Virus record (IMG/VR): IMGVR_UViG_3300021088_000009
Strand: one strand, 5' to 3'
Length of the DNA stretch: 64,000 nt
Origin: a virus
A program made the position numbers and the translations under genes. A model generated the notes under the pieces. It was not told the DNA's origin and did no database searches. It saw only the letters and a list, made by a program, of their open reading frames with translations. This document shows positions 10,562 through 36,790 of the stretch, piece by piece; position 1 is the first letter of the stretch; each line of letters begins with the position of its first letter.

Positions 10562-10961
10562 ACCCCGCGACACGAAACCGACGGATCCTCACTACTACGC
10601 GGTGCTGTCGGCCCCCATGCCCGCGCGGTGTGCCACCAGCATCAACGTCAACCCCTCCGTTCGCGGCTACTTGGCGTCCTTGTTGGAAGCGCTGTGGCTG
10701 GATGGCCCGAACTTCTCCGGCAAGCGGCCGTTCGGCCAGTCCGGGTGGAAGTGGGACGTGTACGAAGCGCTGGTGACCGCCGGCCTGGTGGATGGGCGAT
10801 TCGACGCGGACGGCTGTCTGGCGACCGTTGACGCTGACACCGCTGACCGTCTCATCCACAACGCCATCCACGCCATGGCCGGGTTCGCCCACCTCTACGC
10901 CACCGACGCGGGCCATTTCTGTCAACATCACTGCCCGCAACGCGAAAGGACCGGCACGTGA
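10554..10961 (+). CDS. hypothetical protein
   Basis: ATG start overlapping the upstream stop. 135 aa. Confidence 0.55.
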   Translation: MREPRDTKPTDPHYYAVLSAPMPARCATSINVNPSVRGYLASLLEALWLDGPNFSGKRPFGQSGWKWDVYEALVTAGLVDGRFDADGCLATVDADTADRLIHNAIHAMAGFAHLYATDAGHFCQHHCPQRERTGT

Positions 10962-14678: not shown

Positions 14679-14750
14679 GCACCCTTAGCTCAGCGGGAGA
14701 GCGGCTCTCTTACAAAGAGCGGGTCGGGAGTTCAATTCTCTCAGGGTGTA
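14679..14750 (+). tRNA. tRNA-Val(TAC)
   Basis: Manual fold. Acceptor stem gcaccct/agggtgt. Anticodon loop CTTACAA. T-loop TTCAATT. No encoded CCA. Confidence 0.7.
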
Positions 14751-14934
14751 CAAGGGGCCGACGTGATGCATGATGCGCGTCAACCATCACGTCGGTTCCG
14801 ATCCACAACTCCATGTTCTTGCGGTGCGGGCGTCAACGTCACCGAACCGGGTCATGGTGACCGGGGAGGATCGAAGATGCGGAGCGTTTACAAGCTTTGG
14901 CGCTGTGAAGTGTCTGCGCCCGCATCGCATACCT

Positions 14935-15007
14935 GGGCCTGTAGCTCATCTGGAAGAGCACCTGTTTTGCACACAGGGGGTGGCGGGTTCAAGTCCTGTC
15001 AGGTCCA
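14935..15007 (+). tRNA. tRNA-Ala(TGC)
   Basis: G3:U70 identity pair is present. Anticodon loop TTTGCAC. T-loop TTCAAGT. Confidence 0.75.
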
Positions 15008-15193
15008 CAACCGGGCGACCGGGATCTAACTGAATGAACTTCCATCAGCTGGTCAGTACACCTCGTAAGTCCTGCCTTGGTAGGCAAGCGGGTTAGGGCC
15101 AGCCACGCGGAAGGTGGGAGTGCAGGCCATCGGCTGAGGGCATGCGCACGAGCGAGGTCGGTGGGGACCAGACTCCAGACAACAACTCCATAT

Positions 15194-15266
15194 GCCACTG
15201 TAGCTCAGTCGGAAGAGCGCCTTACTTGTAATAAGGATGTCGCGGGTTCGAATCCTGTCTGTGGCT
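15194..15266 (+). tRNA. tRNA-Thr(TGT)
   Basis: D-arm TAGCTCAGTCGGAAGAGC. Anticodon loop CTTGTAA. One acceptor-stem mismatch at 6:67. Confidence 0.65.
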
Positions 15267-15288
15267 CGTTATACAACTACAACTACAT

Positions 15289-15359
15289 TGCCCGCTCGTT
15301 CAACGGCAGGACACCGGACTCTGACTCCGGGGATCTAGGTTCGAATCCTGGGTGGGCAG
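15289..15359 (+). tRNA. tRNA-Gln(CTG)
   Basis: U1:A72 pair. Anticodon loop CTCTGAC. T-loop TTCGAAT. Confidence 0.65.
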
Positions 15360-15397
15360 CGTTTGACAGTCTCGGTAGAGCATGGTAGCTTTAATCC

Positions 15398-15787
15398 ATG
15401 CCGCTAGCGGACAAGGAAAAGTACAATAACTACATGCGCGACTACATGAAACGCAGGTATCACCAGCGACGCGCAGAGGCAATCCAGCTTCTGGGCTCCC
15501 GGTGCGTTCAGTGTGGTACGACAGAAAACCTTGAAACCGATCACGTTGATCGGACAACTAAATCGTTTGATCTTGGCAAGCTTTGGTCAGTTGCTCGACA
15601 CCTTTACTTGGAAGAGTTGAAGAAGTGTCAACTACTGTGCGAGGATTGCCATAGGCGGAAATCTGCTTCCGAAATGTCGGTGTCTCACGGAGGCGGTATT
15701 TCCGGCAAGAAGAATTGCAAGTGTGAGCCTTGTCGGATCAAAAAGAGGGCTTACATGCGTAATTATAGGCGAGGGTCGGTATCCTAG
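15398..15787 (+). CDS. HNH endonuclease
   Basis: 129 aa. HNH motif elements CVQCG...ETDHV...CEDCHRRK. AT-richer codon usage than its surroundings. The 3' end overlaps the tRNA-Lys(TTT) gene. Start codon uncertain. Confidence 0.75.
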   Translation: MPLADKEKYNNYMRDYMKRRYHQRRAEAIQLLGSRCVQCGTTENLETDHVDRTTKSFDLGKLWSVARHLYLEELKKCQLLCEDCHRRKSASEMSVSHGGGISGKKNCKCEPCRIKKRAYMRNYRRGSVS

Positions 15788-15847
15788 TCTGGTTAAGGAA
15801 ACGAACTTTTAATTCGTGCGCCGTGGGTTCAAATCCCACCCGGCCTA
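15773..15847 (+). tRNA. tRNA-Lys(TTT)
   Basis: Anticodon loop CTTTTAA. T-loop TTCAAAT. Acceptor stem has two G-U pairs. Confidence 0.65.
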
Positions 15848-15852
15848 CTTGG

Positions 15853-15924
15853 TTCCCGTTGCTCTAATCGGCAAGAGACTGGATTTTGGTTCCGGGGATC
15901 TAGGTTCGAATCCTAGACGGGAAG
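15853..15924 (+). tRNA. tRNA-Gln(TTG)
   Basis: Perfect acceptor stem ttcccgt/acgggaa with U1:A72. Anticodon loop TTTTGGT. Confidence 0.65.
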
Positions 15925-15950
15925 CGTTAGTTCTACACCTACAACTACAT

Positions 15951-16025
15951 GCGCCGTTAGCTCAGGCCGGTCAGAGCTGGATACTCTTACTATTCAGGTC
16001 GGGGGTTCGAATCCCTCACGGCGTA
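15951..16025 (+). tRNA. tRNA-Lys(CTT)
   Basis: D-arm TAGCTCAGGCCGGTCAGAGC. Anticodon loop CTCTTAC. T-loop TTCGAAT. Confidence 0.65.
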
Positions 16026-16123
16026 CGTCACAGCCGGTTCGGCGGCTGCCCGTGGCCAACAGTTGCGACAGAGTGACATGGGGAAACGACAGTGGTATGA
16101 CGTCTACTGCCTAGTCCGAACAT

Positions 16124-16196
16124 GGGTCGGTAGCTCAGATGGTAGAGCACTCCCCTGAAAAGGGAGGGGCCGGTGGTTCGAGTCCACTCCTTCCCA
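16124..16196 (+). tRNA. tRNA-Phe(GAA), acceptor stem imperfect
   Basis: Anticodon stem-loop ctccc CTGAAAA gggag. T-loop TTCGAGT. Two acceptor-stem mismatches, so it may be a pseudogene. Confidence 0.5.
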
Positions 16197-16216
16197 CGCA
16201 CCACACACAATTACAT

Positions 16217-16291
16217 TGCGCGGTAACTCAGTCTGGTAAGAGTGCCGATCTGATACATCGGTGGCCCGTGGTTCAAATCCACGCCGCGCAA
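16217..16291 (+). tRNA. tRNA-Ile(GAT)
   Basis: Acceptor stem tgcgcgg/ccgcgca. Anticodon loop CTGATAC. T-loop TTCAAAT. Confidence 0.65.
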
Positions 16292-16399
16292 CGGGGACAC
16301 TGGAGAAATCGTCCATCCGGGCTTTAGTACCCGGTGTCCTACCAACTGAATGCCCTTGACTGCGGCGACTGTCTTTGACAACTCCATGAACACCTCGCG

Positions 16400-16445
16400 A
16401 TGCGAAGGATCGGGTTACTTCCGCTTCCATGTTAGCGGACTAGCT
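16400..16445 (+). repeat. tRNA-derived degenerate repeat (GATGCG...GGGTTACTTC family), copy A
   Basis: cgcgatgcgaaggatcGGGTTACTTCcgc. Related copies lie at 14585-14665, 16545-16665, 17180-17290 and 17295-17345. Confidence 0.5.
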
Positions 16446-16508
16446 CAATTGGTAGAGCGCCCCCCGATGAGGGGGGAGGTTCCGGGTTCGAGTCCCGGGT
16501 CTCATACC
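16434..16508 (+). pseudogene. tRNA-like pseudogene (anticodon arm CCCCCC-GATGAG-GGGGGG, acceptor stem unpaired)
   Basis: D-arm TAGCTCAATTGGTAGAGC and T-loop GGTTCGAGTCC are intact, but the anticodon loop is aberrant and the acceptor stem does not pair. Confidence 0.35.
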
Positions 16509-16544
16509 TGATTCGCCCGGTTCTCGTGAGGTCTCAAAGTTTTG

Positions 16545-16665
16545 AACGCCGTGTGATGCGTAGGAATGGGTTACTTCAAACTGAACATTTGGCGATCCGA
16601 GTTCGACTCTCGGCGGCTCCACTCGTGGGGCCGTGTGTGGACATAGTTTAACCTGGTCCGCTTGG
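16545..16665 (+). repeat. tRNA-derived degenerate repeat, copy B (orphan T-arm/acceptor GAGTTCGACTCTCGGCGGCTCCA)
   Basis: gtgtgatgcgtaggaatGGGTTACTTCaaactgaa...cgcttGGTTCTCacacgg. No matching 5' acceptor half. Confidence 0.5.
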
Positions 16666-16680
16666 TTCTCACACGGTTAA

Positions 16681-16752
16681 GCCGACGTAGCGCAGTGGTA
16701 GCGCAACACCTTGTCAGGGTGAAGGTCGCGGGTTCGACCCCCGTCGTTGGCG
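16681..16752 (+). tRNA. tRNA-Asp(GTC)
   Basis: Acceptor stem gccgacg/cgttggc. Anticodon loop TTGTCAG. T-loop TTCGACC. Confidence 0.7.
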
Positions 16753-16753
16753 C

Positions 16754-16942
16754 GTGCGTGTAACCACAATCGTGAATCCCGACAGCGGAGACGTTCGACT
16801 GATGTTGGACGGCAACCTGGTCGTGGAACTTCGCGGGGGCAACCCCGCCGGCCTGCTCCGGGAACTGGGCACAGCCATCAAGGACAGCGCCCGTGATGTT
16901 GAGCGGGTACGCACAAGGTTGGGTTACTCGAACAGGGGGTGA
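16754..16942 (+). CDS. hypothetical 62-aa protein embedded in the tRNA array
   Basis: ORF with GTG start immediately after tRNA-Asp. Decent GC3. Confidence 0.35.
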   Translation: MRVTTIVNPDSGDVRLMLDGNLVVELRGGNPAGLLRELGTAIKDSARDVERVRTRLGYSNRG

Positions 16943-16947
16943 CAAGC

Positions 16948-17106
16948 ATGGCGCATTCACCACACAAGCGGTGGAAAGGGTGCGCCATGTGCAAGGCGCA
17001 CAAGTTCAAGGACAACGGTCGTAGTGAGCGGGACCCGTTCCGTTACCTGCGGTTCGTGGGCAAGAGACGCCGGGTCAGTCGTCATGACCTGGGCGACCGG
17101 GTGTAG
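16948..17106 (+). CDS. hypothetical 52-aa basic Cys-containing peptide
   Basis: ATG start. Translation MAHSPHKRWKGCAMCKAHKFKDNGRSERDPFRYLRFVGKRRRVSRHDLGDRV. Its end overlaps the tRNA-Pro 5' end. Confidence 0.35.
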   Translation: MAHSPHKRWKGCAMCKAHKFKDNGRSERDPFRYLRFVGKRRRVSRHDLGDRV

Positions 17107-17173
17107 CTCAGTCAGGATAAAGAGTGCCTGTTTTGGGTACAGGATGCCGGGGGTTCGAATCCCTCCACCCGGA
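17097..17173 (+). tRNA. tRNA-Pro(TGG)
   Basis: Perfect acceptor stem ccgggtg/cacccgg. Anticodon loop TTTGGGT. T-loop TTCGAAT. Confidence 0.7.
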
Positions 17174-17179
17174 CTGGTT

Positions 17180-17400
17180 TCGATGCGCAGAGTTGGGTTA
17201 CTTCACAGGTTCGATTCCTCACGCCCCCACCCCTCGGGGGCGGCCACATGGGTGGTTTGTTCCTGGCTCGCTTGGTTCTCGAAACCTTTCAACGCGTGTG
17301 GTTCTGATGCGTAGACGCGGGATACTTCACTTAATCTGTGGGTTGCGGGTTCGAGTCCCGTCACCCCGCTTCAGGGGTGTAGCTCAAGTGGCAGAGCAAT
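17180..17400 (+). repeat. tRNA-derived degenerate repeats, copies C/D with orphan T-arms and an orphan 5' tRNA half (AGGGGTGTAGCTCAAGTGGCAGAGC)
   Basis: Two GATGCG..GGGTTACTTCA units. Orphan T-arms CAGGTTCGATTCC and GCGGGTTCGAGTCCCGTCACCCCGC. The 5' half is not followed by an anticodon arm. Confidence 0.5.
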
Positions 17401-17607
17401 AGAAGCAAGATACCTGTGTCGACTCGGTTCTCAGAACCACCTAGGATTCCCTTCGCGGGGAATGAGATGAGTGTATGGCCGTTGACTCTGAACAGTCGGC
17501 CACGGCGTACGCTGCGAAGTAGGCAAACGTAAGCCCTTATCCGGGTGCTGATACACTCGACAAGGCAATCGTAAGCCCTACGTTTGCACGTGGCGTGCGC
17601 CAACTAG

Positions 17608-17682
17608 AGCGGGGTGGCGCAATTCGGTTAGCGCGAGGGCCTCATAAGCCTTAGGTTGCCGGTTCAAATCCGGTCCCCGCCA
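17608..17682 (+). tRNA. tRNA-Met(CAT), initiator-like 1:72 mismatch
   Basis: Anticodon loop CTCATAA. T-loop TTCAAAT. A1·C72 mismatch, with the other six acceptor-stem pairs G-C. Confidence 0.6.
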
Positions 17683-17878
17683 CTAGAGGGGTAATGCTGG
17701 TTCAAATCCAGTCGGTGAAAACCTTCGGGTGATTAGCTGTCGGCTAATGGTAAGCCGCCTCTCGTTTTACCATCCGGCATGTTGGCCCGAGTGTCGGAGT
17801 TCGACCCCTAAGTGTGCGCACACAGGACGCGTCCCGTAATCACGGCACACGTGACGTTCATCGGGCTTCCACAATCAA

Positions 17879-17951
17879 TGGCCTATAGCTTAACTGGCAG
17901 AGCGGTGGATTGTTACTCCATCAGATCTTGGTTCGAATCCAAGTAGGTCAG
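17879..17951 (+). tRNA. tRNA-Asn(GTT)
   Basis: Acceptor stem tggccta/taggtca. Anticodon loop TTGTTAC. T-loop TTCGAAT. Confidence 0.65.
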
Positions 17952-18078
17952 CGTAGAATCCGTCAGCTTCCGGAGGTGTGACGGCTAGCTACCCAAGACC
18001 CACGCGGTCGACAACGGTACGGGGGTCGCTCCCCCTTGAAAAGGCCGGTGTCGTCATTGCCTCTCTGTCTTGGTCAAT

Positions 18079-18149
18079 GCGGGTGTAGTTTAATGGTAGA
18101 ACTAGTGCCTTCCAAGCAACAGGCCGGGGTTCGATTCCCCGTACCCGCT
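18079..18149 (+). tRNA. tRNA-Gly(TCC)
   Basis: T4-like D-loop TTTAATGGTAG. Anticodon loop CTTCCAA. T-loop TTCGATT. Anticodon stem is weak. Confidence 0.55.
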
Positions 18150-18213
18150 CTAGGCCCGCCAGCGGGTCTTCGTGCCCCCCGCTTACTGTGGCGGTGGTTG
18201 GGGGCACACCAAT

Positions 18214-18297
18214 GGAGGGTAGCGTCCGATGGTGGACATCCCGCCTCGAAAGCGGGTGCCGGGGGCAACCCCGAGGGTTCGACTCCTTTACCTTCCG
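18214..18297 (+). tRNA. tRNA-Ser(CGA)
   Basis: Perfect anticodon stem cccgc/gcggg with loop CTCGAAA. Long variable arm ccggggGCAAccccg. T-loop TTCGACT. Confidence 0.65.
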
Positions 18298-18605
18298 CGC
18301 CGGGGACCGTCATAAATTGTCAAGGCCCAGTGTCCCGCGATACCCAAGGGACCAGTTTCGATGCGGCTGCGACGGTAAGCACGGATAAGCTGTGAACCCA
18401 AATATCCGAACCTAGGCGGAATGGGTGAGCTGAAACGGGTCGCGTACGGGCCCGCCCCCGCACCACTTCGTGTGAATATGCTCTGGGTCCCGAGGGCCTT
18501 AACTGGTCGGGATACAACACTTGCTAGTAGCACAGCATGCCCCCATGGCCATGGGGGAGTCTGGGCGGGGAAGTAACCGGTCGCCCGGAGTCCACACACG
18601 AAAAT

Positions 18606-18690
18606 GGAAGATTGCCAGAGTCTGGCCGATTGGGCGTCACTGCTAATGACGTGGGCCTCGGTCCCAAGGGTTCGAATCCCTTATCTTCCG
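18606..18690 (+). tRNA. tRNA-Ser(GCT)
   Basis: Perfect acceptor stem ggaagat/atcttcc. Anticodon stem-loop cgtca CTGCTAA tgacg. Long variable arm. T-loop TTCGAAT. Confidence 0.7.
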
Positions 18691-18691
18691 C

Positions 18692-18835
18692 GTGACCGAA
18701 GAGAAGAAGGTCAGAACGTCCGGGGGTGTTCCACTCACGGACGAGTTGCTGGACAAGTTGGCGGAGGAAGCTGAAGCCGGATACGATCCGGCCAAGTTGA
18801 AGCCGCGTAAGAAGAACACCGAAAAGAAGAAGTAA
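18692..18835 (+). CDS. hypothetical 47-aa protein (motif SGGVPLTDELLDKLAEEAEAGYD, RHH/antitoxin-like)
   Basis: GTG start 2 nt after tRNA-Ser. Lys-rich C-terminus. The motif resembles small actinobacterial RHH/antitoxin-like proteins, but that is an inference. Confidence 0.45.
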   Translation: MTEEKKVRTSGGVPLTDELLDKLAEEAEAGYDPAKLKPRKKNTEKKK

Positions 18836-18909
18836 CCCTCTCTAGCTCAACAGGACAGAGCGCCCCATTCCTAACGGGTAGGTTCGGGGTTCGATTCCCC
18901 GGAGGGGGA
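18836..18909 (+). tRNA. tRNA-Arg(CCT)
   Basis: C1:G72 pair. Anticodon loop TTCCTAA. T-loop TTCGATT. Same body as the neighbouring Arg(CCG). Anticodon stem has two mismatches. Confidence 0.5.
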
Positions 18910-18915
18910 CGTTAA

Positions 18916-18989
18916 CCCGCTTTAGCTCAATAGGACAGAGCACCGGTTTCCGAAGCCGGAGGTTCAGGGTTCGATTCCCTGGAGTGGGA
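18916..18989 (+). tRNA. tRNA-Arg(CCG)
   Basis: Perfect anticodon stem ccggt/gccgg with loop TTCCGAA. T-loop TTCGATT. Confidence 0.65.
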
Positions 18990-18990
18990 C

Positions 18991-19067
18991 GGTGGCTGTC
19001 GCCCAATTGGCCGGGAGCCAGATTGTGAGTCTGGATGATGCGGGTTCGAGTCCCGTCAGTCACCCCA
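18991..19067 (+). tRNA. tRNA-His(GTG) with encoded G-1 and 3' CCA
   Basis: Extra 5' G precedes acceptor stem gtggctg/cagtcac. Discriminator C. CCA is encoded. Anticodon stem-loop ccaga TTGTGAG tctgg. Confidence 0.75.
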
Positions 19068-19083
19068 AACTTAAGGAAATAAC

Positions 19084-19347
19084 GTGACTGAGCGCGCGGA
19101 GTTTCCACACTGCGACATGCGTATCTTGCACGCTCCGGGTGAGTGCGAGTATTGCGAAGAATATTCGGACTGGCAGGATCTGCGGAAGCGGTGGGGTATT
19201 GCCTTTACCGGGCATGAACCGCAAGAAGTACGTGTGTCGGGTACGCTGATCGCACGGGAGCTTCCGTGTCCAGCCGATTTCAACCGGCCGCCGTCCAGTT
19301 CCTCGGATCACCGTCAGTGGCCTGGTAACACGCCGGAAGGGTACTGA
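19084..19347 (+). CDS. hypothetical Cys-rich protein embedded in the tRNA array
   Basis: AAGGAAAT RBS followed by a GTG start. 87 aa. Carries the motifs HCDMRILHAPGECEYCEE. Confidence 0.5.
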   Translation: MTERAEFPHCDMRILHAPGECEYCEEYSDWQDLRKRWGIAFTGHEPQEVRVSGTLIARELPCPADFNRPPSSSSDHRQWPGNTPEGY

Positions 19348-19351
19348 CTAA

Positions 19352-19425
19352 GCCCTGGTAGCTCAGCTGGATAGAGTGCCACGCTACGAACGTGGAAGTC
19401 GGGGGTTCAAGTCCCTCTCAGGGTA
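19352..19425 (+). tRNA. tRNA-Arg(ACG)
   Basis: D-arm TAGCTCAGCTGGATAGAGT. Anticodon stem-loop ccacg CTACGAA cgtgg. T-loop TTCAAGT. Confidence 0.7.
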
Positions 19426-19572
19426 CGTTGCACACCGTTCGTTCTTTCGCAAGAAGATCCCGGTACGTGGTTTCCGATGTAGCCAACGACACTCAGACTG
19501 TCGCTCTGGCGGTTACCACCCCTTGACGGAGAGGGACCCGAGTGAAGTCCGTCGTCCGGTGTGCACACCTAC

Positions 19573-19645
19573 GGCGCATTAGTTCAATTGGCGGAACGTC
19601 CGGTTCTCAGCCGGGAGGTTGTGGGTTCGAGTCCCACATGCGCTA
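19573..19645 (+). tRNA. tRNA-Glu(CTC)
   Basis: Acceptor stem ggcgcat/atgcgct. Anticodon stem-loop tccgg TTCTCAG ccggg. T-loop TTCGAGT. Confidence 0.65.
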
Positions 19646-19788
19646 CGTATCGGCTAGTGGGATAGCCCCGTAGGATCGCAACCCACGGGCTAGACGCAGA
19701 GGTGACGGCCACCTGGGAGTCCCTGGGCTGTCTCTCGCTGGTGAACGGTCAGGGACTCCCGACCGGACACCGGGAAGCTATCCATCAT

Positions 19789-19862
19789 GGTCCCTTAGCC
19801 CAATGGCAGGAGGCACTCCGCTCAAAACGGGGACAGTGTGCGTTCGAATCGCACAGGGACTA
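19789..19862 (+). tRNA. class-I tRNA with anticodon CAA (Leu anticodon on a Gln/Glu-type body, short variable arm)
   Basis: Acceptor stem ggtccct/agggact. D-arm gcc-CAATGGCAGGA-ggc. Anticodon stem-loop ctccg CTCAAAA cgggg. Variable region is only 5 nt. T-loop TTCGAAT. Confidence 0.55.
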
Positions 19863-19875
19863 CGCAGTGCAGTAT

Positions 19876-19948
19876 GGCCCGTTGGAGTAATAGGAAGCTC
19901 ACCTGACTTTCATTCAGGAGTGTGCGGGTTCGAGCCCCGTACGGGCTA
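19876..19948 (+). tRNA. tRNA-Glu(TTC)
   Basis: Perfect anticodon stem cctga/tcagg with loop CTTTCAT. T-loop TTCGAGC. Confidence 0.65.
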
Positions 19949-20051
19949 CGTCTACCGGTTAAATGAATTGAATCAGCCTTCGGGTGCCGGGACTGTGAAG
20001 CGGGGAGCGTGGGAGGGTCCGCCGTGCCGACTAGGGATGAGGTCGGCCCAT

Positions 20052-20123
20052 TCCGTACAGCGTTGGTTGTGCCGGCGGGCCTGTAAAGCCCTCCCGTGTG
20101 TGGTTCGAATCCACCGTGCGGAA
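20052..20123 (+). tRNA. possible tRNA-Tyr(GTA), class-I-like
   Basis: Acceptor stem tccgtac/gtgcgga. Anticodon loop CTGTAAA. T-loop TTCGAAT. Short variable region and weak D-arm. Confidence 0.4.
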
Positions 20124-20219
20124 CGATCACCGGGGTTAATCAGGGTGTCCCTGGTGATTGCGGTGAGACAAGTAGGAACGGCGCAGTAAGCGCGGGTGTT
20201 GTGGTAGCGCCCGCGTCAT

Positions 20220-20295
20220 GCTCCCTTAGCCCAACTTTGGCAGAGGCGTCCGGTTCAGGTCCGGGAGGTTGAGAGTTCGAATCTCTCAGGGAGTA
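20220..20295 (+). tRNA. class-I tRNA with anticodon CAG (Leu anticodon, short variable arm)
   Basis: Acceptor stem gctccct/agggagt. Anticodon stem-loop tccgg TTCAGGT ccggg. Variable region AGGTT. T-loop TTCGAAT. Confidence 0.55.
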
Positions 20296-20305
20296 CGTTT
20301 GTTAT

Positions 20306-20380
20306 GCACCTATAGCCCAACCAGGCAGAGGCGTCACCTTGAGGTGGTGGAGGTTCCGGGTTCGAATCCCGGTAGGTGTA
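20306..20380 (+). tRNA. class-I tRNA with anticodon GAG (Leu anticodon, short variable arm)
   Basis: Acceptor stem gcaccta/taggtgt. Anticodon stem-loop tcacc TTGAGGT ggtgg. Variable region AGGTT. T-loop TTCGAAT. Confidence 0.55.
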
Positions 20381-20507
20381 CTGGGCGCGGTACCTTTCTC
20401 TCCGGTGCCAGGTTGCGAAAAGCCGCGCCCTCCTTTCTCGTTCCGGAGCCATCGGATGAGAAACGGCGTCCGTGCCCTGTTGGCTTGATGGGGGGCACGG
20501 GCGTTAT

Positions 20508-20578
20508 GGCGGATTGACCGAGAGGCTAGGTGGCAGCCTGCAAAGCTGCTCACGGGAGTTCGAGTCTCCCATTCGCCT
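20508..20578 (+). tRNA. tRNA-Cys(GCA)
   Basis: Acceptor stem ggcggat/attcgcc. Perfect anticodon stem gcagc/gctgc with loop CTGCAAA. T-loop TTCGAGT. Confidence 0.6.
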
Positions 20579-20640
20579 CGGAAGTGCTGTAGGCCATTCG
20601 CTTCGGGGATCCTAGGAACCCTCGCGCGATGGGGAAGCAC

Positions 20641-21155: not shown

Positions 21156-22907
21156 ATGTCGAAGTTCAACCAGAAGACGCCCGACGTGTTCGGCCGTGTC
21201 GGCGCGGGAGCGGGATCCTCCCCGATCGTCGTGGACCGGCGCGCGTCGGCACGCACTTTCGAGGGTGCGCCGTCGTTCGCGCGGTCCGACCGTGGCCAGC
21301 TGTTCCTCACGTGCACGGCCGGGTTCATCGCCGAGGACAAGTTCTACGAGACCGGCGACGCCACGGTGAACCGGGTGCGGGAGTTGACCGCATCCATCGC
21401 GACCGAGACCCGACCGCGTCAGAAGCTGGCCGGCGCGTTCACGGGGAAGTCCGTGGACGTCAAGACCGGCCGTGTGCATTCCGATGACATCGACACCGGC
21501 GCGGCATGGTTGACGCCGTTCATCAACTGGGCCCGGCGCGTCGGCAACGTGCGCACCGCGCCCATCGTCGTCGCCTGCGAGGCGGTGCACGCACGGTTGA
21601 AGGCCGGCATCAACGGCGGCAACCGCGAGATGCTCCGCGCACCGCTGGCCCGGGCCGACGAGCCGGGCGAGATGGTCGCGTACTGGCGGGCCCGGTTCGG
21701 CCGCGCGATCCCCATGTGCATGAAGCGCGCCATCGGGGACGTGCTCCCGCAGTTGTACACGGAGTACTCGGCGTTGAAGTACGACACCGCCGCGCATGCG
21801 GTGCGGTTCGGTGACGTCGTGGACATCGTCCACCCGACCGACGCGGCGACCCCGGCACGGAACGCGTTCTACCGGTGGCTGATGGACCGCCGTCACCGGC
21901 GGGACAACGCGACCGCCAGCGCGGCTGGTCACCTCCCGATGATCGTCGCCCGTGCCCAGTTGGAGACGATCCCGGTCGCGGACCGGCGTGCCCTGGTGGG
22001 TTCGGCTGACCTGGACACGTGGATGCGGAACGCGGGCATGACGTGGGAGTCGCTGTCCGGGTGGCTGTCGGACGGTGGCGGCATGGACGCGGCCGCGTGG
22101 GAGGCCATCATCCCGAACATGGGATACATGGCGTTGTTGCGGAACCTCCGCAACTTTGACCAGGCCGGCGTGTCCGATGAGGTCGCCGGGCTGATTGCGA
22201 CGAAGCTCGCTAACCCGGGCGAGGTGGCGCGGTGCAAGCAATTCCCGTTCCGGTTCCTGTCCGCGTTGCGTCAGGTGCCGTCGTTGCGGTGGGGTCACGC
22301 GCTGGACAAGGCGTTGACGTTGTCCACGGGGAACGTGCCGGTGCTGGACGGGCGGACGTTGATCCTGGTGGACACGTCGGGGTCGATGGGCAACCCGATG
22401 TCGGGGAAGTCGAACGTGTCCTGTGTGGACGCGGCCACGGTGTTCGGTGTGGCGTTGGCGTTCCGGAATCGGGGGAACGTGGACCTGGCGGGGTGGGCTA
22501 CGGGCACGTATGAGCAGACCATCACGCGGGGTGGGTCGCTGATCAGCGAGGTGAAGAAGTTCACCGAGCGCGCCGGGTCGGTGGGTCACGGGACGGATCT
22601 GGGTCAGGCGTTGGCGAAGACGTTCCGGCGTGGGGAGCACGCGCGGGTGTTCGTGTTCTCGGACATGCAGTTGATGGGATCGAGCTGGTACGGCGGCGCG
22701 GATGCGGTCAACCGGTATGTGCCGGCGGAGGTGCCGGTGTACTCGTGGAACCTGATGGGGTACGCGGGTGCGATGACGGCGGGCACGAACCGGCATGAGC
22801 TGGGCGGCCTGACGGACGCGACGTTCCGTCTGGTGCCGACGATCGAGGCGGCGCAGACCGGGGTGTGGCCGTGGGAGTTGGACGCGGCGGAGGTGTTGTC
22901 GCGGTAG
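21156..22907 (+). CDS. rsr: Ro60-like TROVE-domain protein with C-terminal vWA/MIDAS domain (Rsr orthologue)
   Basis: 583 aa. GAAGGAGGG RBS. N-terminal TROVE-like region. C-terminal MIDAS motif in LILVDTSGSMGNP. This domain order is characteristic of Ro60/Rsr. Confidence 0.7.
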   Translation: MSKFNQKTPDVFGRVGAGAGSSPIVVDRRASARTFEGAPSFARSDRGQLFLTCTAGFIAEDKFYETGDATVNRVRELTASIATETRPRQKLAGAFTGKSVDVKTGRVHSDDIDTGAAWLTPFINWARRVGNVRTAPIVVACEAVHARLKAGINGGNREMLRAPLARADEPGEMVAYWRARFGRAIPMCMKRAIGDVLPQLYTEYSALKYDTAAHAVRFGDVVDIVHPTDAATPARNAFYRWLMDRRHRRDNATASAAGHLPMIVARAQLETIPVADRRALVGSADLDTWMRNAGMTWESLSGWLSDGGGMDAAAWEAIIPNMGYMALLRNLRNFDQAGVSDEVAGLIATKLANPGEVARCKQFPFRFLSALRQVPSLRWGHALDKALTLSTGNVPVLDGRTLILVDTSGSMGNPMSGKSNVSCVDAATVFGVALAFRNRGNVDLAGWATGTYEQTITRGGSLISEVKKFTERAGSVGHGTDLGQALAKTFRRGEHARVFVFSDMQLMGSSWYGGADAVNRYVPAEVPVYSWNLMGYAGAMTAGTNRHELGGLTDATFRLVPTIEAAQTGVWPWELDAAEVLSR

Positions 22908-23021: not shown

Positions 23022-24953
23022 GTGCACACGTCGCCCTCGTTCGAGAAGCTGTTGGACTACACCGGTTTCAGCCGACGCCCACAACAGGACGCCCTGATGT
23101 CGGCCCTGTCCGCACCCCGCGACACCCCCATCTTCGTCCAAGCCGGAACCGGCGTCGGCAAATCCTTCGCGGTCCTGTCCCGCGCGGCCGACATCGGCAC
23201 CCCCGGCCGCCCCGCCGTCGTCGCCTCGGTGACCAACAGCCTCCTTAACCAGTACGTGGACAAGGATCTCCCCCGCGTCGCCGACGCCACCGGCATCACC
23301 TTCGTCCGCGTGCTCGGCGCGAAGAACTACCTGTGCGCCGACTCCGAAGCCGGCAAACTCGCCGGCGTCAACGACCTCACCCCCGGTGAGCGGGACCGGT
23401 GGATGTACAGCCTGTGCAAGCCGTCCACCAACCCGGCGACGCTGGGCGAGTGGCGCGCGGAAGGCCTCGACTTCACCTACGCCTGCCCCGGATCCGGTTC
23501 CTGTAAAGGAAACATGCGCGTATGGGTGCACGCCCCAGAATGCGACAAGTCCTGTGAGGACACGTGCGAGAACGGCTACCGGGGCGACGACGTGTATGGC
23601 GGGTGCGCGTCCAAGCGGGCCCGGTCCCGCGCGTGGGAAGTGAACATTGTCTTGACGAACTTCCACTTCCTGTACTTCCACCAGTACGTGCTGGAGACCA
23701 CGGCCGAGTCCGGCAACCCGGTGGAGTTGTTGCCGCCGTGGTCGGACCTGTTGATCGATGAAGCGCACCACCTTCCCGAGACGGTGCGGGATCTGCGGAC
23801 CCGGATCATCAAGGAGGGCACCGGAAACCTGATCTTCGCGTTCGAGGATGGCGTGGACCCGCCGGAGGTGTGCGAACAGAACCGGAAGCTGATCAAGGCC
23901 ACGAAGGGGATCATCACGTTCGCCACGGAGGTCCGCAAGCCGTGGGGCAAGTGGGACACCGAACGCCCCATCAACACCGTCCGCACCCCCGGTGAGGTCC
24001 AGTTCCTGGCCAAGTATCGGGACAAGCTCAGCGAGTTCGACGGCGCACCGGTCACCGAAGAGATCAACGGCGAACAGGTCCAGACCTTCGGACGCAGCAC
24101 CCTCGCTGACTTGGCGACGGTGTCCGAGCTCATGCAAGGCGGCGACGCGCAATTGAAGTGGACCGCCTTGCACGGTGAGGAGAACCCGGGCCAGATCAAG
24201 CTGATTCCGATCACCGCGCATGAGTCGTTCGTGGCGCGCATGATCGGCACCGGCGCGTTGGTGACCGGCACGGCCGGGGACACGTTGCCGCGCCGGTGCG
24301 GCGTGTACGACCCGGCGGTGAAGGTCGTGGACGTGGGGCACCCGTTCCGGTACGCCACACAGGTCCGTGGCTGGATTTCCCAGTATTCCGGGGTGAAGTC
24401 CAACGCGAACGACTCCGACGTCGTCAAGGCACGCCTGGCGGAGGTCGCGGCGTTCACTGCCGGGCATCCGTCGCTGGTGTTGTGCACGTCGCATGCGGAC
24501 GTGAAGTTGGTGGCGAACACGCTGTCCCGGAAGGCGCATGTGTTTCTTCAGCCCCGGGAGGGTGGTTCGATCGCGGCAAACGAGGTCGCGGCACAGTATC
24601 GAGCCATGGCGGAGCGGGGCTGTCCGGCGGTGTTGATCGGCACGTCCAGTTACGCAACCGGCCTGGACCTTCCCGGTGACCTGTTGACCCGCGTTGTGCT
24701 CTGGTCGTTTTTCGGGATGGCGGATCACGTGGCACAGCAGATGTCGCGCCGATACTCGGGATTCGTGGAGGAACAGCGGCACACGCGGGTGGTGCAGTCC
24801 GCCGGCCGCCTGATCCGCACGGACACCGACCAGGGGGAGATCCTGGTGTCCGACTGCCGTTTCTGGGACTTGTTGCGGCGGGTCAAGAAGTACGAGTTGG
24901 TGTTGGACAAGCATCTGTTGGAAATCCCCTGGCAGAAATACCCCAGGAGTTGA
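23022..24953 (+). CDS. DinG/Rad3-like (XPD-family) SF2 helicase with Fe-S Cys cluster
   Basis: 643 aa. Lies downstream of promoter copy P7. Walker A motif QAGTGVGKS. DEAH box in LLIDEAHHL. Cys-rich insert between the two motifs (C..C..C..C). Confidence 0.75.
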   Translation: MHTSPSFEKLLDYTGFSRRPQQDALMSALSAPRDTPIFVQAGTGVGKSFAVLSRAADIGTPGRPAVVASVTNSLLNQYVDKDLPRVADATGITFVRVLGAKNYLCADSEAGKLAGVNDLTPGERDRWMYSLCKPSTNPATLGEWRAEGLDFTYACPGSGSCKGNMRVWVHAPECDKSCEDTCENGYRGDDVYGGCASKRARSRAWEVNIVLTNFHFLYFHQYVLETTAESGNPVELLPPWSDLLIDEAHHLPETVRDLRTRIIKEGTGNLIFAFEDGVDPPEVCEQNRKLIKATKGIITFATEVRKPWGKWDTERPINTVRTPGEVQFLAKYRDKLSEFDGAPVTEEINGEQVQTFGRSTLADLATVSELMQGGDAQLKWTALHGEENPGQIKLIPITAHESFVARMIGTGALVTGTAGDTLPRRCGVYDPAVKVVDVGHPFRYATQVRGWISQYSGVKSNANDSDVVKARLAEVAAFTAGHPSLVLCTSHADVKLVANTLSRKAHVFLQPREGGSIAANEVAAQYRAMAERGCPAVLIGTSSYATGLDLPGDLLTRVVLWSFFGMADHVAQQMSRRYSGFVEEQRHTRVVQSAGRLIRTDTDQGEILVSDCRFWDLLRRVKKYELVLDKHLLEIPWQKYPRS

Positions 24954-25005: not shown

Positions 25006-25560
25006 ATGGGCTGGTGTAGCGGGACCAGTATCTTCGACGATGTGCTCCGCGCGGCCTTGCCGCACATCACCGACAAGGCCGCGCGGGAACGTTTCGTGTA
25101 CCAGGTCGCCGTCACCCTCTGGGAAGGTGACTGGGACTGTGAAGGCGACTCCGACTACTACCAGGAATTTCAGCACATCCTGGACGCGGGGGAGGACAGC
25201 GACAAGCCATGGGCGAAAGACCCCGTGGTGGCCGCGAAATTCCCGCCGGTCAAAACGTACCGCAAGACCTACGTGACGCCCGCCATCGAATACACCGGCT
25301 ACAACTTCCACAACGTCCGCGCCTTCTGTGAAGGCGACGGCGGCCATGTGTGGGGAATCGCGGACATCAACGACACCTACGGCAACACAAGGAACCACCC
25401 GGCGTCCACGATGAACGAGCTGTGCGTGTACGACTACTTGCGTCGCGCGTGGATTCCCTTCTCGGTCGGCGACCACATCGCGAAAGGGTCAACCGGGGAG
25501 CACTACCCGATCGGGGCCAGCGTCCTGAAAACTGACTACGTGGAGGTGACTCTCACGTGA
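25006..25560 (+). CDS. hypothetical protein
   Basis: AAGGAGG RBS, ATG start. 184 aa. Confidence 0.65.
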   Translation: MGWCSGTSIFDDVLRAALPHITDKAARERFVYQVAVTLWEGDWDCEGDSDYYQEFQHILDAGEDSDKPWAKDPVVAAKFPPVKTYRKTYVTPAIEYTGYNFHNVRAFCEGDGGHVWGIADINDTYGNTRNHPASTMNELCVYDYLRRAWIPFSVGDHIAKGSTGEHYPIGASVLKTDYVEVTLT

Positions 25561-26366
25561 GTGAGCACAACGGCACCCGACCCATCCCATCGTCCTGGGT
25601 CACCGGGGCCATGGTCGGACTCGACACGGAAACCACTGGTGTCGACCCCGAGAACGACCGCATCGTGACCGCGACCGTGATCGCGGACATTCCGGGCTAC
25701 CCGCTGGAAATCAGCAACTGGACGATCGACCCTGGGGTGGAGATCCCGGCGGCCGCGTCCGAGATTCACGGGGTCACCACGGAGCACGTGCGGGAGAACG
25801 GCCAGCGGCCGATGGTCGCGGTGTGGGACATCTGGGACACGATCGCCGCGTACTGGCGAGACGACACTCCGCTGGTGATCTACAACGCGCCGTTCGACCT
25901 GACGTTGTTGGATCGGGAGTTGGCGCGGCACGGGTACGGCGGTCTGGAGATCCGGGGGCCGGTGATCTGTCCGCTGACGATTGACCGTGCTGTGGACCGC
26001 TACCGCAAGGGCAAGCGGACCCTGACGGATCTGTGCAAGTTTTACGGGGTGGAGCTGGTCAACGCGCACACGTCGGAGGCGGACGTGGCGGCCACGTTGA
26101 TGATCGCCCGCATCATCGGCGAGAAGTACCCGGCCGTGGGCACCGCGTCACTGGAGAAGCTGAACCAGCACCAAAAGGCGTGGTACCACAACTGGGCAAT
26201 GAACTTCGCGGCGTATCTGGTCAGGTCCGCGCATGAGGTGAGCGCGGCCGAGGAAGAACGTCTGCGTGCGATGGTCGACAACTTGAAGGCCAACGCGAGG
26301 AACTGGCCCATGATTCCGGCCAGTGGAGACTTCCATCCCGCACAACGCGGAGATGGGAACGAGTAA
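25557..26366 (+). CDS. DnaQ-like DEDDh 3'-5' exonuclease (Pol III epsilon-like)
   Basis: Exo I motif GLDTETTG. Exo II motif YNAPFD. Exo III motif HTSEADVAAT. 269 aa. Confidence 0.8.
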   Translation: MSEHNGTRPIPSSWVTGAMVGLDTETTGVDPENDRIVTATVIADIPGYPLEISNWTIDPGVEIPAAASEIHGVTTEHVRENGQRPMVAVWDIWDTIAAYWRDDTPLVIYNAPFDLTLLDRELARHGYGGLEIRGPVICPLTIDRAVDRYRKGKRTLTDLCKFYGVELVNAHTSEADVAATLMIARIIGEKYPAVGTASLEKLNQHQKAWYHNWAMNFAAYLVRSAHEVSAAEEERLRAMVDNLKANARNWPMIPASGDFHPAQRGDGNE

Positions 26367-26392
26367 CGCACTAACACCAAGGAGTGTGGCTT

Positions 26393-27286
26393 ATGGGTAT
26401 TTTTGTGGTGGGCTGTCTGCTGGGGGTCATTGCCCTGATCGGGGTCGTGGTCGCCATTGGCGGCCGCGACGATGAGGGAATGTTGGTCGGTGGTGCTGTC
26501 ACGGCCATCGTCGCGGGTCTTCTCAGCGGTGGCCTCATCATCGCGGACTCCCACGTGAGCGTGGACGCGAACACGGTGGCCATCATTCAGGAGTTCGGGA
26601 AGCCCGTTGGCGACCCGGCGGGGCCGGGCTGGAACTGGACCGCGCCGTGGGCGACCGCGTCCGTGATCGACACGAAGGTGCAGACCACGGCGCGGCTGGC
26701 CGGCGACAAGGGCGACACGCCGGGCGCGGACTGCGTGAAGGTCAACTTCAAGGACAACGCGTCGGCGTGCGCGGACATCACCATCTCCTACCGGGTGTCG
26801 TCCGAGAACGCGGTGAAGTTGTGGCGCAACTACAGCTCCCTGGATGACGCCCGGGACAAGCTGTTGCGGCCGGCGACCGACAGCGCTGCGCGGGAGGTGT
26901 ATGGCTCGTTCACGTCCTTGGACGTGATCGACGGGTCCAAGCAATCGGCCATCACTGACGGCATCACCAGTTCATTGCGCGCCAAGCTGGCCAGCTCCGG
27001 CCTGGACCTGGTGTCGGTGGCCCCGGGCCAGATCCACCTGTCCGACTCGGCTCAGGCGAACCTGGACAAGCTCCGCAACGCCCAGGTGGAGACGCAGGTG
27101 GCGCAGCAGACGCTGGCGAAGAACCAGGCGTTGGCAGCGGCGAACAACGCGTTGAACGCGTCGCTGACCGACGGCATCAAGTTCGAGGACTGCCTCAACG
27201 TGGCGCGGGACATCAAGACGGTGGGCTTTTCGTGTACCGGTTCGGGGTCGAACATGCTCTTGAACGTGTCCGGGTCGAACAAGTAG
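26393..27286 (+). CDS. SPFH/band-7 (stomatin/prohibitin-like) membrane protein
   Basis: AAGGAG RBS. N-terminal TM helix. The SPFH-like core begins with TVAIIQEFGKP. Coiled-coil C-terminus. Confidence 0.65.
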   Translation: MGIFVVGCLLGVIALIGVVVAIGGRDDEGMLVGGAVTAIVAGLLSGGLIIADSHVSVDANTVAIIQEFGKPVGDPAGPGWNWTAPWATASVIDTKVQTTARLAGDKGDTPGADCVKVNFKDNASACADITISYRVSSENAVKLWRNYSSLDDARDKLLRPATDSAAREVYGSFTSLDVIDGSKQSAITDGITSSLRAKLASSGLDLVSVAPGQIHLSDSAQANLDKLRNAQVETQVAQQTLAKNQALAAANNALNASLTDGIKFEDCLNVARDIKTVGFSCTGSGSNMLLNVSGSNK

Positions 27287-35349: not shown

Positions 35350-35870
35350 CCAAGGACGAGACGTTCGAGGGACGCCCCATCACTGGGGATCTCAGTTACC
35401 GCGACTACACCGCCGTGGAACAGTGGGACCGGCCCCGGTTCCTGGAACTGTTGGACGCTGTGCTGACCGCGCCGGACGTGTCGGCCGTCCGCTGGCGTCA
35501 GTGGGTTCCCTCGTTCAACGACGGCGACCCGTGCGAGTTCACCATGGGTGAGTTCTACCTGCGTCCCGCCACCACCGTGTTGGACGTTTCGGGGGACTCC
35601 GACGACCCGGACCCGGACGACTACGACGATGACGAGACCGGTGAATACGGCGACGGTTTCCAGGACTTCGGGGACCTCACCCGCGTCTGGGACAACACCG
35701 CCGGCAAGTACGTGGAGTTGCCGAACCCGCACCCCGGCGGCGAACCCCTCCGGAAGCTGAACGAGCAGTCCGGGCACTTTGAGGCGGTGTTGCGGGAAAG
35801 CTTCGGGGACCACGCGATTGTCACCGCCACCACCGCCGGATTCCAGGTGGAGTTCTACGAGCATGACTGA
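35346..35870 (+). CDS. hypothetical acidic protein
   Basis: GTGA start/stop overlap with the upstream gene. 174 aa. Asp-rich stretch. Confidence 0.6.
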   Translation: MTKDETFEGRPITGDLSYRDYTAVEQWDRPRFLELLDAVLTAPDVSAVRWRQWVPSFNDGDPCEFTMGEFYLRPATTVLDVSGDSDDPDPDDYDDDETGEYGDGFQDFGDLTRVWDNTAGKYVELPNPHPGGEPLRKLNEQSGHFEAVLRESFGDHAIVTATTAGFQVEFYEHD

Positions 35871-36762
35871 CGTCAGCGCAGACCACGACCGGGTTCCGGC
35901 CCGGTCGTGGTCGGTGTCCCAGTCCCACGCGATGAACGAGTGTCCCCGCGCGTGGTGGTTCCGGTACGTCGCGAAGGCCGCCCCGGCACAGCCACGCCCG
36001 GTAAAGCAAGTCGTGGGGTCCGCGATTCACGCCGGCCTGGAAGCCGCGTACCTCGCGGCGAAGGCTAACGCGGCCTGGGCCGGTTCCCGTCGCATGGTCG
36101 ACACCTACGCAATGGCCGCCCTGACGGCGTTCAGCGCCTACTGGGACGCCAACGGGGCCAGGATCCGGGAGTACGAGCGGCACGACGCTGAGCGGCTCCT
36201 GCTGGAACTGTTGGACGTGCTGGTGACCCCGCGCCCGTGGGAGATCCTCGGCGTGGAAGAGCAGTTCACCCTCCGCACGTTCCCGCAGACCAATACCCCC
36301 CCGGCGACCGTCACGGGCGTGATGGATCTGGTGTTCAACACCAGCTACGCGGATGTGAAGTCCATTCACATTCGGGACTGGAAGCTGGGCACCGTGCCCA
36401 CCGACCCGAAAGAGCTGGAGAACAACCAGCAGTTGTGCACCTACGCGGCGGCGGCCACGCACCGGTGGCCCTGGGTTCAGCAGATCACCGTTGGCCTGTA
36501 CTCGATCCGGGAACGCCGGGAGGTCATCACGGAGCTCCACTCGGACTCGATCAACCATGCCGTGAACCAACTGTCCTACGACGCGGAGACCGGCCGGTTG
36601 CGGGCGGCGCGGCGGTGGGTGGAGCCCCTTCCGGGTGAGCACTGCGGCGGGTGCCGGTTCCGGTCGTACTGTCCGACGATGGTGAAGAACCGGCCGCCTC
36701 TCGTGCCCGGGGTGGATCTGGTGGCGGAACGCGCCATGATCGCCGAGAAGCTCACAAGCTGA
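35863..36762 (+). CDS. PD-(D/E)XK nuclease, Cas4/RecB-like with C-terminal Cys cluster
   Basis: 299 aa. D...E.K motif in MDLVF...IRDWKLG. C-terminal motif CGGCRFRSYC (Fe-S-like). Confidence 0.6.
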   Translation: MTDVSADHDRVPARSWSVSQSHAMNECPRAWWFRYVAKAAPAQPRPVKQVVGSAIHAGLEAAYLAAKANAAWAGSRRMVDTYAMAALTAFSAYWDANGARIREYERHDAERLLLELLDVLVTPRPWEILGVEEQFTLRTFPQTNTPPATVTGVMDLVFNTSYADVKSIHIRDWKLGTVPTDPKELENNQQLCTYAAAATHRWPWVQQITVGLYSIRERREVITELHSDSINHAVNQLSYDAETGRLRAARRWVEPLPGEHCGGCRFRSYCPTMVKNRPPLVPGVDLVAERAMIAEKLTS

Positions 36763-36790
36763 CATCGTTACACACCAAGGAGTGCAAGGC

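Follow-up and report, generated by a model that had tools for sequence, protein, structure and literature searches.

Among the closest described relatives of the genes reported here is a leucine transfer RNA (tRNA-Leu) of Streptomyces coelicolor, which has one type I tRNA-Leu(CAA) beside four type II isoacceptors (Fan et al. 2019, Nucleic Acids Research, PMC6614811). This type I molecule resisted deletion, a single leucyl-tRNA synthetase (LeuRS) leucylates both types, and U8-A14, C74 and a variable-loop length of 5 nucleotides (nt) were important for its charging; moreover, removal of the variable stem from the type II tRNA-Leu(UAA) left charging unharmed (PMC6614811). We have analyzed a window of 64,000 nt, one strand of the IMG/VR virus record IMGVR_UViG_3300021088_000009, in which three genes of a phage tRNA array carry the same U8-A14, C74 and 5-nt variable region. 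We consider it highly probable that the three are type I tRNA-Leu, charged by the host LeuRS and reading CUG, CUY and UUG as leucine. It is reported, in work attributed to Larkin et al. 2002, that the variable arm and the anticodon arm of E. coli tRNA-Leu are both dispensable for leucylation. Our literature search found no description of type I tRNA-Leu in phages, and the S. coelicolor study (PMC6614811) does not mention phages. The three genes and the array in which they lie are as follows.

19789-19862, plus strand: type I tRNA-Leu, anticodon CAA at 19823-19825, reads UUG (ARAGORN; Rfam, 50.6 bits)
20220-20295, plus strand: type I tRNA-Leu, anticodon CAG at 20256-20258, reads CUG (ARAGORN; Rfam, 48.4 bits)
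20306-20380, plus strand: type I tRNA-Leu, anticodon GAG at 20341-20343, reads CUC/CUU (ARAGORN; Rfam, 52.7 bits)
14679-20579, plus strand: phage tRNA array of 27 tRNA genes (ARAGORN, default threshold)

ARAGORN itself gives the spans 19789-19863, 20220-20296 and 20306-20381 (75, 77 and 76 nt), which count one base past the discriminator, and the Rfam model RF00005 (gathering score 29) matched the three genes with E-values of 2e-9 to 3.5e-8. In the ARAGORN folds all three have a 7-bp acceptor stem, a 3-bp D stem (GCC/GGC), a 5-bp anticodon stem and a 5-bp T stem, and they share a D loop of 11-13 nt, the T loop TTCGAAT, U8, A9, G1.U72, A73 and an encoded C74. The anticodon loops, each of 7 nt with U33, read CTCAAAA (CAA), TTCAGGT (CAG) and TTGAGGT (GAG), and the variable regions are 5 nt long (ACAGT in the CAA gene, AGGTT in the CAG and GAG genes), short of the 10 nt or more of a class II long arm. 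In tRNA-Leu(CAA) the acceptor strands are GGTCCCT/AGGGACT, the D arm is GCC-CAATGGCAGGA-GGC, position 37 is A and C74 is encoded at 19863. The D arm is GCC-C-AACTTTGGCAG-A-GGC in tRNA-Leu(CAG), with a C13xA22 mismatch, and GCC-C-AACCAGGCAG-A-GGC in tRNA-Leu(GAG), both with G37.

The initial annotation, made from the letters alone, had described a class I fold with a 5-nt variable region, anticodon loops for the leucine codons UUG, CUG and CUC, the discriminator A73 in all three genes and an array without a canonical class II tRNA-Leu, and this description stands. ARAGORN, the Rfam model and RNAalifold concur on the fold and place no long arm, ARAGORN puts the anticodons CAA, CAG and GAG in those loops, and A73 is confirmed from the 3' ends. 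Class II, long-arm tRNA-Leu is absent from the 27 array tRNAs at 14679-20579 found by ARAGORN at its default threshold; only the two tRNA-Ser (85 and 86 nt) retain long variable arms there. The RNAalifold consensus of 60 family members, among them the window's three and the three of the mycobacteriophage Cali, is a class I cloverleaf with a 7-nt anticodon loop, in which compensatory changes are found at 19 of the 20 predicted pairs and no helix lies between the anticodon and T arms. Such family-wide covariation, together with the conserved identity positions U8, A14, A15:U48, G18G19 and A73, argues for selection on a working tRNA shape.

To which body these short molecules belong was assessed on tRNAs parsed from the fetched loci (1,192 at first, 1,776 later), with classes assigned from ARAGORN calls, a variable region of at least 9 nt defining the long-arm class, and a comparison set of long-arm tRNA-Leu chosen independently of the window's D-arm motif. 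The D stem has 3 bp in 98% of the short-arm tRNA-Leu and in 87% of the long-arm ones, as against 27% of tRNA-Gln and 26% of tRNA-Glu, and the median D loop measures 11, 10, 8 and 9 nt in the same order. The D-arm signature of a 3-bp stem, a 13x22 mismatch, A14, R15 and G18G19-N-A-R was seen in 84% of the short-arm tRNA-Leu and in 55% of the long-arm ones, compared with 9% of tRNA-Gln, 2% of tRNA-Glu and 0-4% of every other isotype. The pair A15:U48 follows the same direction (93%, 89%, 66% and 17% for short-arm Leu, long-arm Leu, Gln and Glu), and A73 is found in 255 of 261 short-arm tRNA-Leu. Within the window, the strict signature is seen in the CAG and GAG genes; the CAA gene has one extra G (GGCAGGA), like the CAG gene of Cali. 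All three have the Levitt pair A15:U48, with U48 as the last base of the variable region, and position 37 follows the pattern of canonical Leu isoacceptors: G in both CUN readers, A (with A38) in the UUG reader. The claim that this D arm is typical of Gln/Glu tRNAs does not survive these counts and the profile scores given below.

Class II tRNA-Leu (E. coli leuW and Streptomyces tRNA-Leu(GAG)) share with the window's trio the 3-bp D stem, a D loop of the form N13-A14-A15-(N1-3)-G18G19-Y-A-G-A, A15:U48, A73 and, in CUN readers, G37. They differ in that the window tRNAs are without the 11-17-nt variable stem-loop, that their position 9 is A and not G, and that C12-G23 replaces G12-C23. The long-arm tRNA-Leu of the same arrays read TG-GCG-GAATGGCAGA-CGC where the window tRNA-Leu read TA-GCC-CAATGGCAGA-GGC, so the D loop is identical in both and position 9 and the third stem pair differ. 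Bacterial tRNA-Gln and tRNA-Glu share with the trio their class I size; their D loop is shorter (7-9 nt) and has no GG-N-A-G-A tail, and tRNA-Gln has G73 and U1-A72. The tRNA-Gln and tRNA-Glu of the window itself show a D stem of 4 bp and a D loop of 7-8 nt, the Gln genes with G73 and a 4-nt variable region. None of the three conforms to a bacterial tRNA-Gln (U1-A72, G73, a Gln-type D arm and an anticodon YUG), since they have G1.U72, A73 and Leu anticodons, nor to a bacterial tRNA-Glu (a D arm of the GUC-UAG..GG..AG-GAC type, a 4-nt variable region and an anticodon YUC). The Gln likeness perceived earlier is real yet superficial, and its probable source is E. coli tRNA-Gln, which has a 3-bp GCC/GGC D stem and a 5-nt variable region.

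Isotype profile hidden Markov models, scored after removal of the anticodon and the variable region, put most of the other window tRNAs in the isotype given by their anticodon. With the Gln profile the three tRNA-Leu scored 6.9-14.0 bits against 39-50 bits for the window's own tRNA-Gln, and with the Glu profile 8.4-17.9 bits against 22-37 bits for its own tRNA-Glu. A profile derived from 78 solitary type I tRNA-Leu of cellular genomes gave 35.8, 38.2 and 27.9 bits for the CAA, CAG and GAG genes (20-26 bits for the best other isotype), a similarity test that is partly circular, as the profile was built from tRNAs collected with the window's own D-arm motif. Raw identity over the D region or the whole body had also been tried as an isotype test and was non-discriminating, with Asn, Thr and Lys as the top non-Leu isotypes through the generic GCTCA..GG.AGAGC; it was replaced by the D-arm signature and the profiles.

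The family is large in phages, with members on more than 100 IMG/VR phage contigs. The scan of IMG/VR used the D arm of the window tRNAs as its motif, TAGCCCAAN{1,4}GGCAGN{1,2}GGC, also written TAGCCCAA..GGCAG..GGC, and returned at least 128 sites in at least 120 loci. Among the matches listed, 113 of 128 sites lie in tRNAs of 73-79 nt with Leu anticodons (TAA, CAA, TAG, GAG, CAG and AAG), and the remainder are one tRNA-Gly and 14 sites without a tRNA call, with no long-arm tRNA. The same motif was searched in GTDB with one genome per species, the phylum being read from organism names in the genome records, and at least 122 sites in at least 120 loci were obtained, of which, among the matches listed (as for all genome counts that follow), 101 of 122 lie in tRNA-Leu of 74-79 nt. 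Thus, over more than 200 independent sites in the two collections, the window-type D arm is tied nearly exclusively to Leu anticodons.

Among cellular genomes, Actinomycetota account for 92 of the 120 loci, and in 81 of 87 cases their type I tRNA-Leu is the sole tRNA in its 8-kb locus; of the 26 in other phyla, just 3 stand alone and the others lie in multi-tRNA arrays. The anticodons of the Actinomycetota type I genes are TAA (51), CAA (18), TAG (13) and CAG (5), with no GAG, and the CAG and GAG forms are nearly restricted to arrays and phages. The solitary sequences are near-identical across Mycobacterium, Nocardia, Rhodococcus and Gordonia, which fits a vertically inherited core gene. In M. 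tuberculosis, only tRNA-Leu-2, -3 and -5 were described with long variable loops (PMC11541572), from which it would follow that its other two tRNA-Leu are without them.

The window's genes resemble the type I tRNA-Leu(CAA) of S. coelicolor and its Actinomycetota orthologues in having a Leu anticodon, a 5-nt variable region, U8-A14, A73 and C74. The D arm is the same as well, for instance TA-GCCCAATTGGCAGCAGGC in a Streptomyces sp. tRNA-Leu(CAA) and TA-GCCCAAC(T)GGCAGAGGC in Kutzneria and Amycolatopsis, and the window tRNA-Leu(CAA) is 71-74% identical to these genes. The differences are that the window genes are phage-encoded, lie in a 27-gene array, have G1.U72 and encode no CCA, and that two of the three read CUN, for which type I genes in Actinomycetota chromosomes are rare (CAG) or were not seen (GAG). 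Animal mitochondrial type I tRNA-Leu also have a short variable region and A73, as summarized in PMC6614811; they belong to another lineage and recognition system and are not relatives of the window genes, and the S. coelicolor enzyme (ScoLeuRS) fails to charge human mitochondrial tRNA-Leu(UUR) (PMC6614811).

Comparison with the tRNA sets of related phages, suggested in the initial annotation as a check, brought a close counterpart: Bxz1-like phages hold the same three anticodons on genes of 74-76 nt annotated as tRNA-Leu. Genes 80-82 of Cali (Bixzunavirus, a Bxz1-like mycobacteriophage) are adjacent tRNA-Leu that measure 76, 75 and 74 nt and carry CAG, GAG and CAA as anticodons; they were deposited as tRNA-Leu and have A73, and two of the three have G1.U72. 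The Cali CAG gene is 80% identical to the window's, and by blastn the window tRNA-Leu(CAG) is about 80% identical to annotated tRNA-Leu of 74 Mycobacterium phage records and of some Gordonia phages. Otherwise the genomes are unrelated at the DNA level, Cali having no megablast match to the window. In the GAG and CAA genes of Cali the D stem is GGC/GCC and the variable region has 4 nt, and the window's three tRNA-Leu form no separate block, being scattered among Glu genes and a Tyr-like element.

The anticodon set also suits the phage. In 48 crudely selected predicted genes of the window (14,225 codons), leucine is encoded by CTG (46%), CTC (23%), TTG (23%), CTT (7%), CTA (1%) and TTA (0%), and because CTG, CTC, CTT and TTG dominate, the anticodons CAG, GAG and CAA cover 99% of the phage's Leu codons. 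Recoding of these codons was tested on the UvrD-like helicase (36782-38488), aligned with 113 homologues of 45-86% identity. Leucine makes up 75%, 71% and 66% of the homologue residues at its CTG, CTC and TTG sites, the other residues there being mainly I, V, M, F and A, with Q and E outside the six commonest; opposite the CAG, GAG and GAA sites the homologues have mostly Q or E. As the homologues are standard-code translations, many of them from related phages, the test is informative mainly through this hydrophobic substitution pattern. The suggestion that the three tRNAs redirect Leu codons in a recoding or suppressor-like manner finds no support in it. Of the readings offered initially, the evidence favors the last, that of Leu tRNAs of unusual structure to which the host LeuRS would attach leucine.

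What we observe, then, is a class I fold, a Leu-type body, membership of a large family that covaries and spans phages and actinobacterial chromosomes, a match to codon use and conservation of leucine or hydrophobic residues at the codons read. Expression, processing and leucylation by the host LeuRS are what we infer. Leucylation and use in translation have the S. coelicolor tRNA-Leu(CAA) as their only demonstrated case and draw indirect support, for the window genes, from the match to codon use and from the conservation of leucine at the codons read. The three tRNA-Leu would be transcribed as part of the phage tRNA array. The U at position -1 would fit processing by RNase P, and CCA would be completed after the encoded C74. 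The host LeuRS, an enzyme that ignores the anticodon and appears already to serve chromosomal type I tRNA-Leu in actinobacteria, would add leucine, and CUG, CUC/CUU and UUG would be decoded as leucine, topping up the Leu-tRNA supply for the codons that the phage uses almost exclusively. Although uncommon, type I tRNA-Leu have been described before; they are a normal feature of actinobacterial chromosomes and frequent in clusters of phage tRNA genes, so that the trio may be regarded as ordinary, with no sign of code rewiring.

Some points weigh against this reading. E. coli LeuRS is unable to charge the S. coelicolor type I tRNA-Leu (PMC6614811), and a contact between Arg921 of M. tuberculosis LeuRS and the long arm of tRNA-Leu(CAG) has been proposed (Hu et al., PMC3561953), so that charging of type I CAG and GAG forms is not assured in every host. 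These CUN-reading forms are moreover without cellular precedent, as the CAG form of Actinomycetota chromosomes is rare and no solitary GAG form was seen among the matches listed. In addition, the D-arm likeness within the family is partly circular because the scan motif came from the window tRNAs. Finally, a profile of long-arm tRNA-Leu with the arm excised scored the three poorly (no hit, 18.1 and 11.4 bits), where descent from class II tRNA-Leu as seen by a sequence profile would have been expected to give a good score. The assignment of a Leu-type body is thus based on how the D arm is built, on A15:U48 and on A73, and not on general sequence resemblance to class II tRNA-Leu.

The array has further peculiarities. 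C74 is encoded in all 27 tRNA genes and CCA by His(GTG) only; most genes are preceded by ...(C)AT, which places U at position -1. G1.U72 and A73 are combined in 9 of the 27 (Val, both Lys, Arg-ACG, both Glu and all three Leu), and the two tRNA-Glu genes flank the first tRNA-Leu (CAA). No transfer-messenger RNA was found in the array search, and no tRNA-Tyr or tRNA-Trp at the default ARAGORN threshold. Several members of doubtful standing and some neighboring elements are listed here.

16124-16197, plus strand: tRNA-Phe(GAA), with two neighboring mismatches in the acceptor stem
16434-16508, plus strand: tRNA-His(ATG), with an unusual anticodon, a mostly unpaired acceptor stem and the array's lowest Rfam score (39.9 bits), possibly a pseudogene
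16553-16620: a second, poor tRNA-Phe-like element, by relaxed ARAGORN
17315-17422, plus strand: YrlA-like Y RNA match inside the array, 46.1 bits, under the Rfam gathering score of 69
20052-20124, plus strand: sub-threshold tRNA-like element of 73 nt with a 5-nt variable region, between tRNA-Glu(TTC) and tRNA-Leu(CAG)
21156-22907, plus strand: Ro60-like open reading frame just downstream of the array (Pfam TROVE, 8.4e-16, plus a VWA domain)

The element at 20052-20124, detected only by ARAGORN -ps90 and as a 23.8-bit match to the tRNA-Sec model, has the anticodon loop CTGTAAA (GTA, Tyr), U1-A72, A73, C74, a weak D arm and a 4-bp T stem, and the 'CAT' 5' leader in common with other array genes. 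Were it genuine, the element would represent a tRNA-Tyr with a short arm, a case more unusual than the tRNA-Leu trio, because bacterial TyrRS (tyrosyl-tRNA synthetase) uses the long arm. The stretch 17296-17370, which overlaps the YrlA-like match, is labelled 'tRNA-Leu(taa)' by relaxed ARAGORN. Phage-encoded Ro60/YrlA pairs are already known (Chen et al. 2014, PMC4201824), and distant Ro60 homologues in IMG/VR (L293 and L297) likewise adjoin tRNA arrays. A Ro60-anchored search for the arrays of relatives yielded distant relatives only (36-40% identity); in two of these, the array tRNA-Leu are mixed in one and all type I in the other.

Further genes flanking the array have Pfam matches.

10958-13219, plus strand: SNF2-family helicase
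23022-24953, plus strand: DEAD/Helicase_C_2 helicase
25557-26366, plus strand: RNase T-type exonuclease
26384-27286, plus strand: SPFH/Band 7 protein
35779-36762, plus strand: PD-(D/E)XK nuclease
36782-38488, plus strand: UvrD-like helicase

Metagenomic relatives of the UvrD-like helicase reach 86% identity and lie on contigs as long as 90 kb. Megablast of the array region against 50,697 phage records gave no match and blastn only short matches of tRNA size, and a 725-aa open reading frame matching annotated DNA primases is less than 35% identical to actinophage proteins. As judged from these comparisons, the phage is without a close isolated relative.

Phage arrays picked by a tRNA-Trp pattern, that is without regard to leucine, were sampled (48 stretches matched, 45 with tRNAs). 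A variable region of 8 nt or less is found in 10 of their 48 tRNA-Leu, in none of 37 tRNA-Ser and in 1 of 17 tRNA-Tyr. The short tRNA-Leu of phage arrays show at least two D-arm flavors, TA-GCC-CAA (the window type) and TG-RYG-GAA..GGTATAC. The second (L251, L273, L276, L278 and L262/L271 in IMG/VR) has a class II-like D arm with a 5-8-nt variable region and resembles a class II tRNA-Leu that has lost its arm. As two flavors exist, arm loss may be recurrent and independent of the TA-GCC-CAA family.

Perhaps the short arm was selected in phages as an escape from host defense or toxin enzymes that recognize the class II long arm, so that Leu decoding survives inactivation of the host tRNA-Leu, although we think this unlikely. 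Arm-dependent toxins do exist, which makes such a function conceivable: MenT3 acts on tRNA-Ser, and AbiEii likely favors tRNAs of class II. With MenT3, deletion of the arm abolishes efficient modification, and tRNA-Leu-3 turns into a full substrate after a 2-nt deletion (PMC11541572). The recurrent loss that the two flavors suggest would agree with an escape, as would the near restriction of type I CAG and GAG forms to arrays and phages and the retention of the arm by phage tRNA-Ser and tRNA-Tyr, whose synthetases, SerRS (seryl-tRNA synthetase) and TyrRS, need the long variable arm. Yet 38 of the 48 phage tRNA-Leu are still long-armed, and no tRNA-Leu-specific, arm-dependent antiphage nuclease was found in the literature searched. 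Actinomycetota hosts carry type I tRNA-Leu themselves, so that the data are accounted for by simple inheritance or capture and a later change of anticodon inside the family. In its widest form the proposal would be that phages repeatedly strip the long arm of tRNA-Leu, including the CUG and CUC readers, of which host chromosomes retain the class II form, that bacterial LeuRS tolerates the loss and that the armless form is invisible to host toxins or abortive-infection enzymes (nucleotidyltransferases of the MenT/AbiEii type or nucleases) that detect class II tRNAs through the arm. This too we regard as improbable; if it were true, the window's all-type-I Leu set would be a counter-defense module and not a simple codon-supply module.

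Alternatively, the three genes may be no substrates of translation at all: they could be pseudo-tRNAs in decay, or stay uncharged and act as decoys or regulators by titrating a host factor that binds tRNA, a nuclease or a modifying enzyme. Dubious members do occur in the array (His(ATG) with its broken acceptor, Phe with two acceptor mismatches, the sub-threshold Tyr-like element) and a tRNA-mimicking Y-RNA-like element, and the G1.U72 pair of all three tRNA-Leu is weak. We hold this alternative to be very doubtful, since all their stems are intact, their Rfam scores are within the range of the other array members, the family covaries and conserves U8, A14, A15:U48, G18G19 and A73, and the anticodon set fits 99% of the phage's Leu codons. 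Furthermore, G1.U72 occurs likewise in 9 of the 38 long-arm tRNA-Leu, and E. coli tRNA-Leu(UAA) has it too. Among the matches listed, the pair is commoner in the short-arm tRNA-Leu of IMG/VR (64 of 148) than in those of genomes (20 of 113).

As for anticodon-switched Gln/Glu tRNAs that are still charged with Gln or Glu, or are suppressor-like, and would recode phage or host proteins by inserting another amino acid at Leu codons, the D stem and variable region of E. coli tRNA-Gln and the two tRNA-Glu genes around the first tRNA-Leu are what speaks for them, and the idea is scarcely credible given the low Gln and Glu profile scores, A73 in place of the G73 of the window's tRNA-Gln, the absence of U1-A72, the link of the D arm almost only to Leu anticodons, the Leu, I, V, M and F residues at the helicase Leu-codon sites, and the need of both GlnRS and GluRS (the glutaminyl- and glutamyl-tRNA synthetases) for their cognate anticodon bases, because of which CAA, CAG and GAG tRNAs should not be charged by either.

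Seen as type I tRNA-Leu, the three genes remove a false lead, as short tRNAs that bear Leu anticodons in a phage array give no evidence of recoding or mischarging. Type I tRNA-Leu is a documented yet under-appreciated class, and annotators and isotype classifiers should leave such genes unflagged as anticodon/body mismatches. Two observations are mildly new: all Leu isoacceptors of this phage are type I, CUN readers included, as in Bxz1-like phages; and the sampled phage arrays often drop the arm of tRNA-Leu, never that of tRNA-Ser and almost never that of tRNA-Tyr, a pattern for which our literature search found no paper describing it. This loss, in about one fifth of the tRNA-Leu of the sampled arrays, mirrors which synthetases need the arm, and it offers the modest hypothesis that phage tRNA-Leu may thereby escape from toxins that recognize the long arm.

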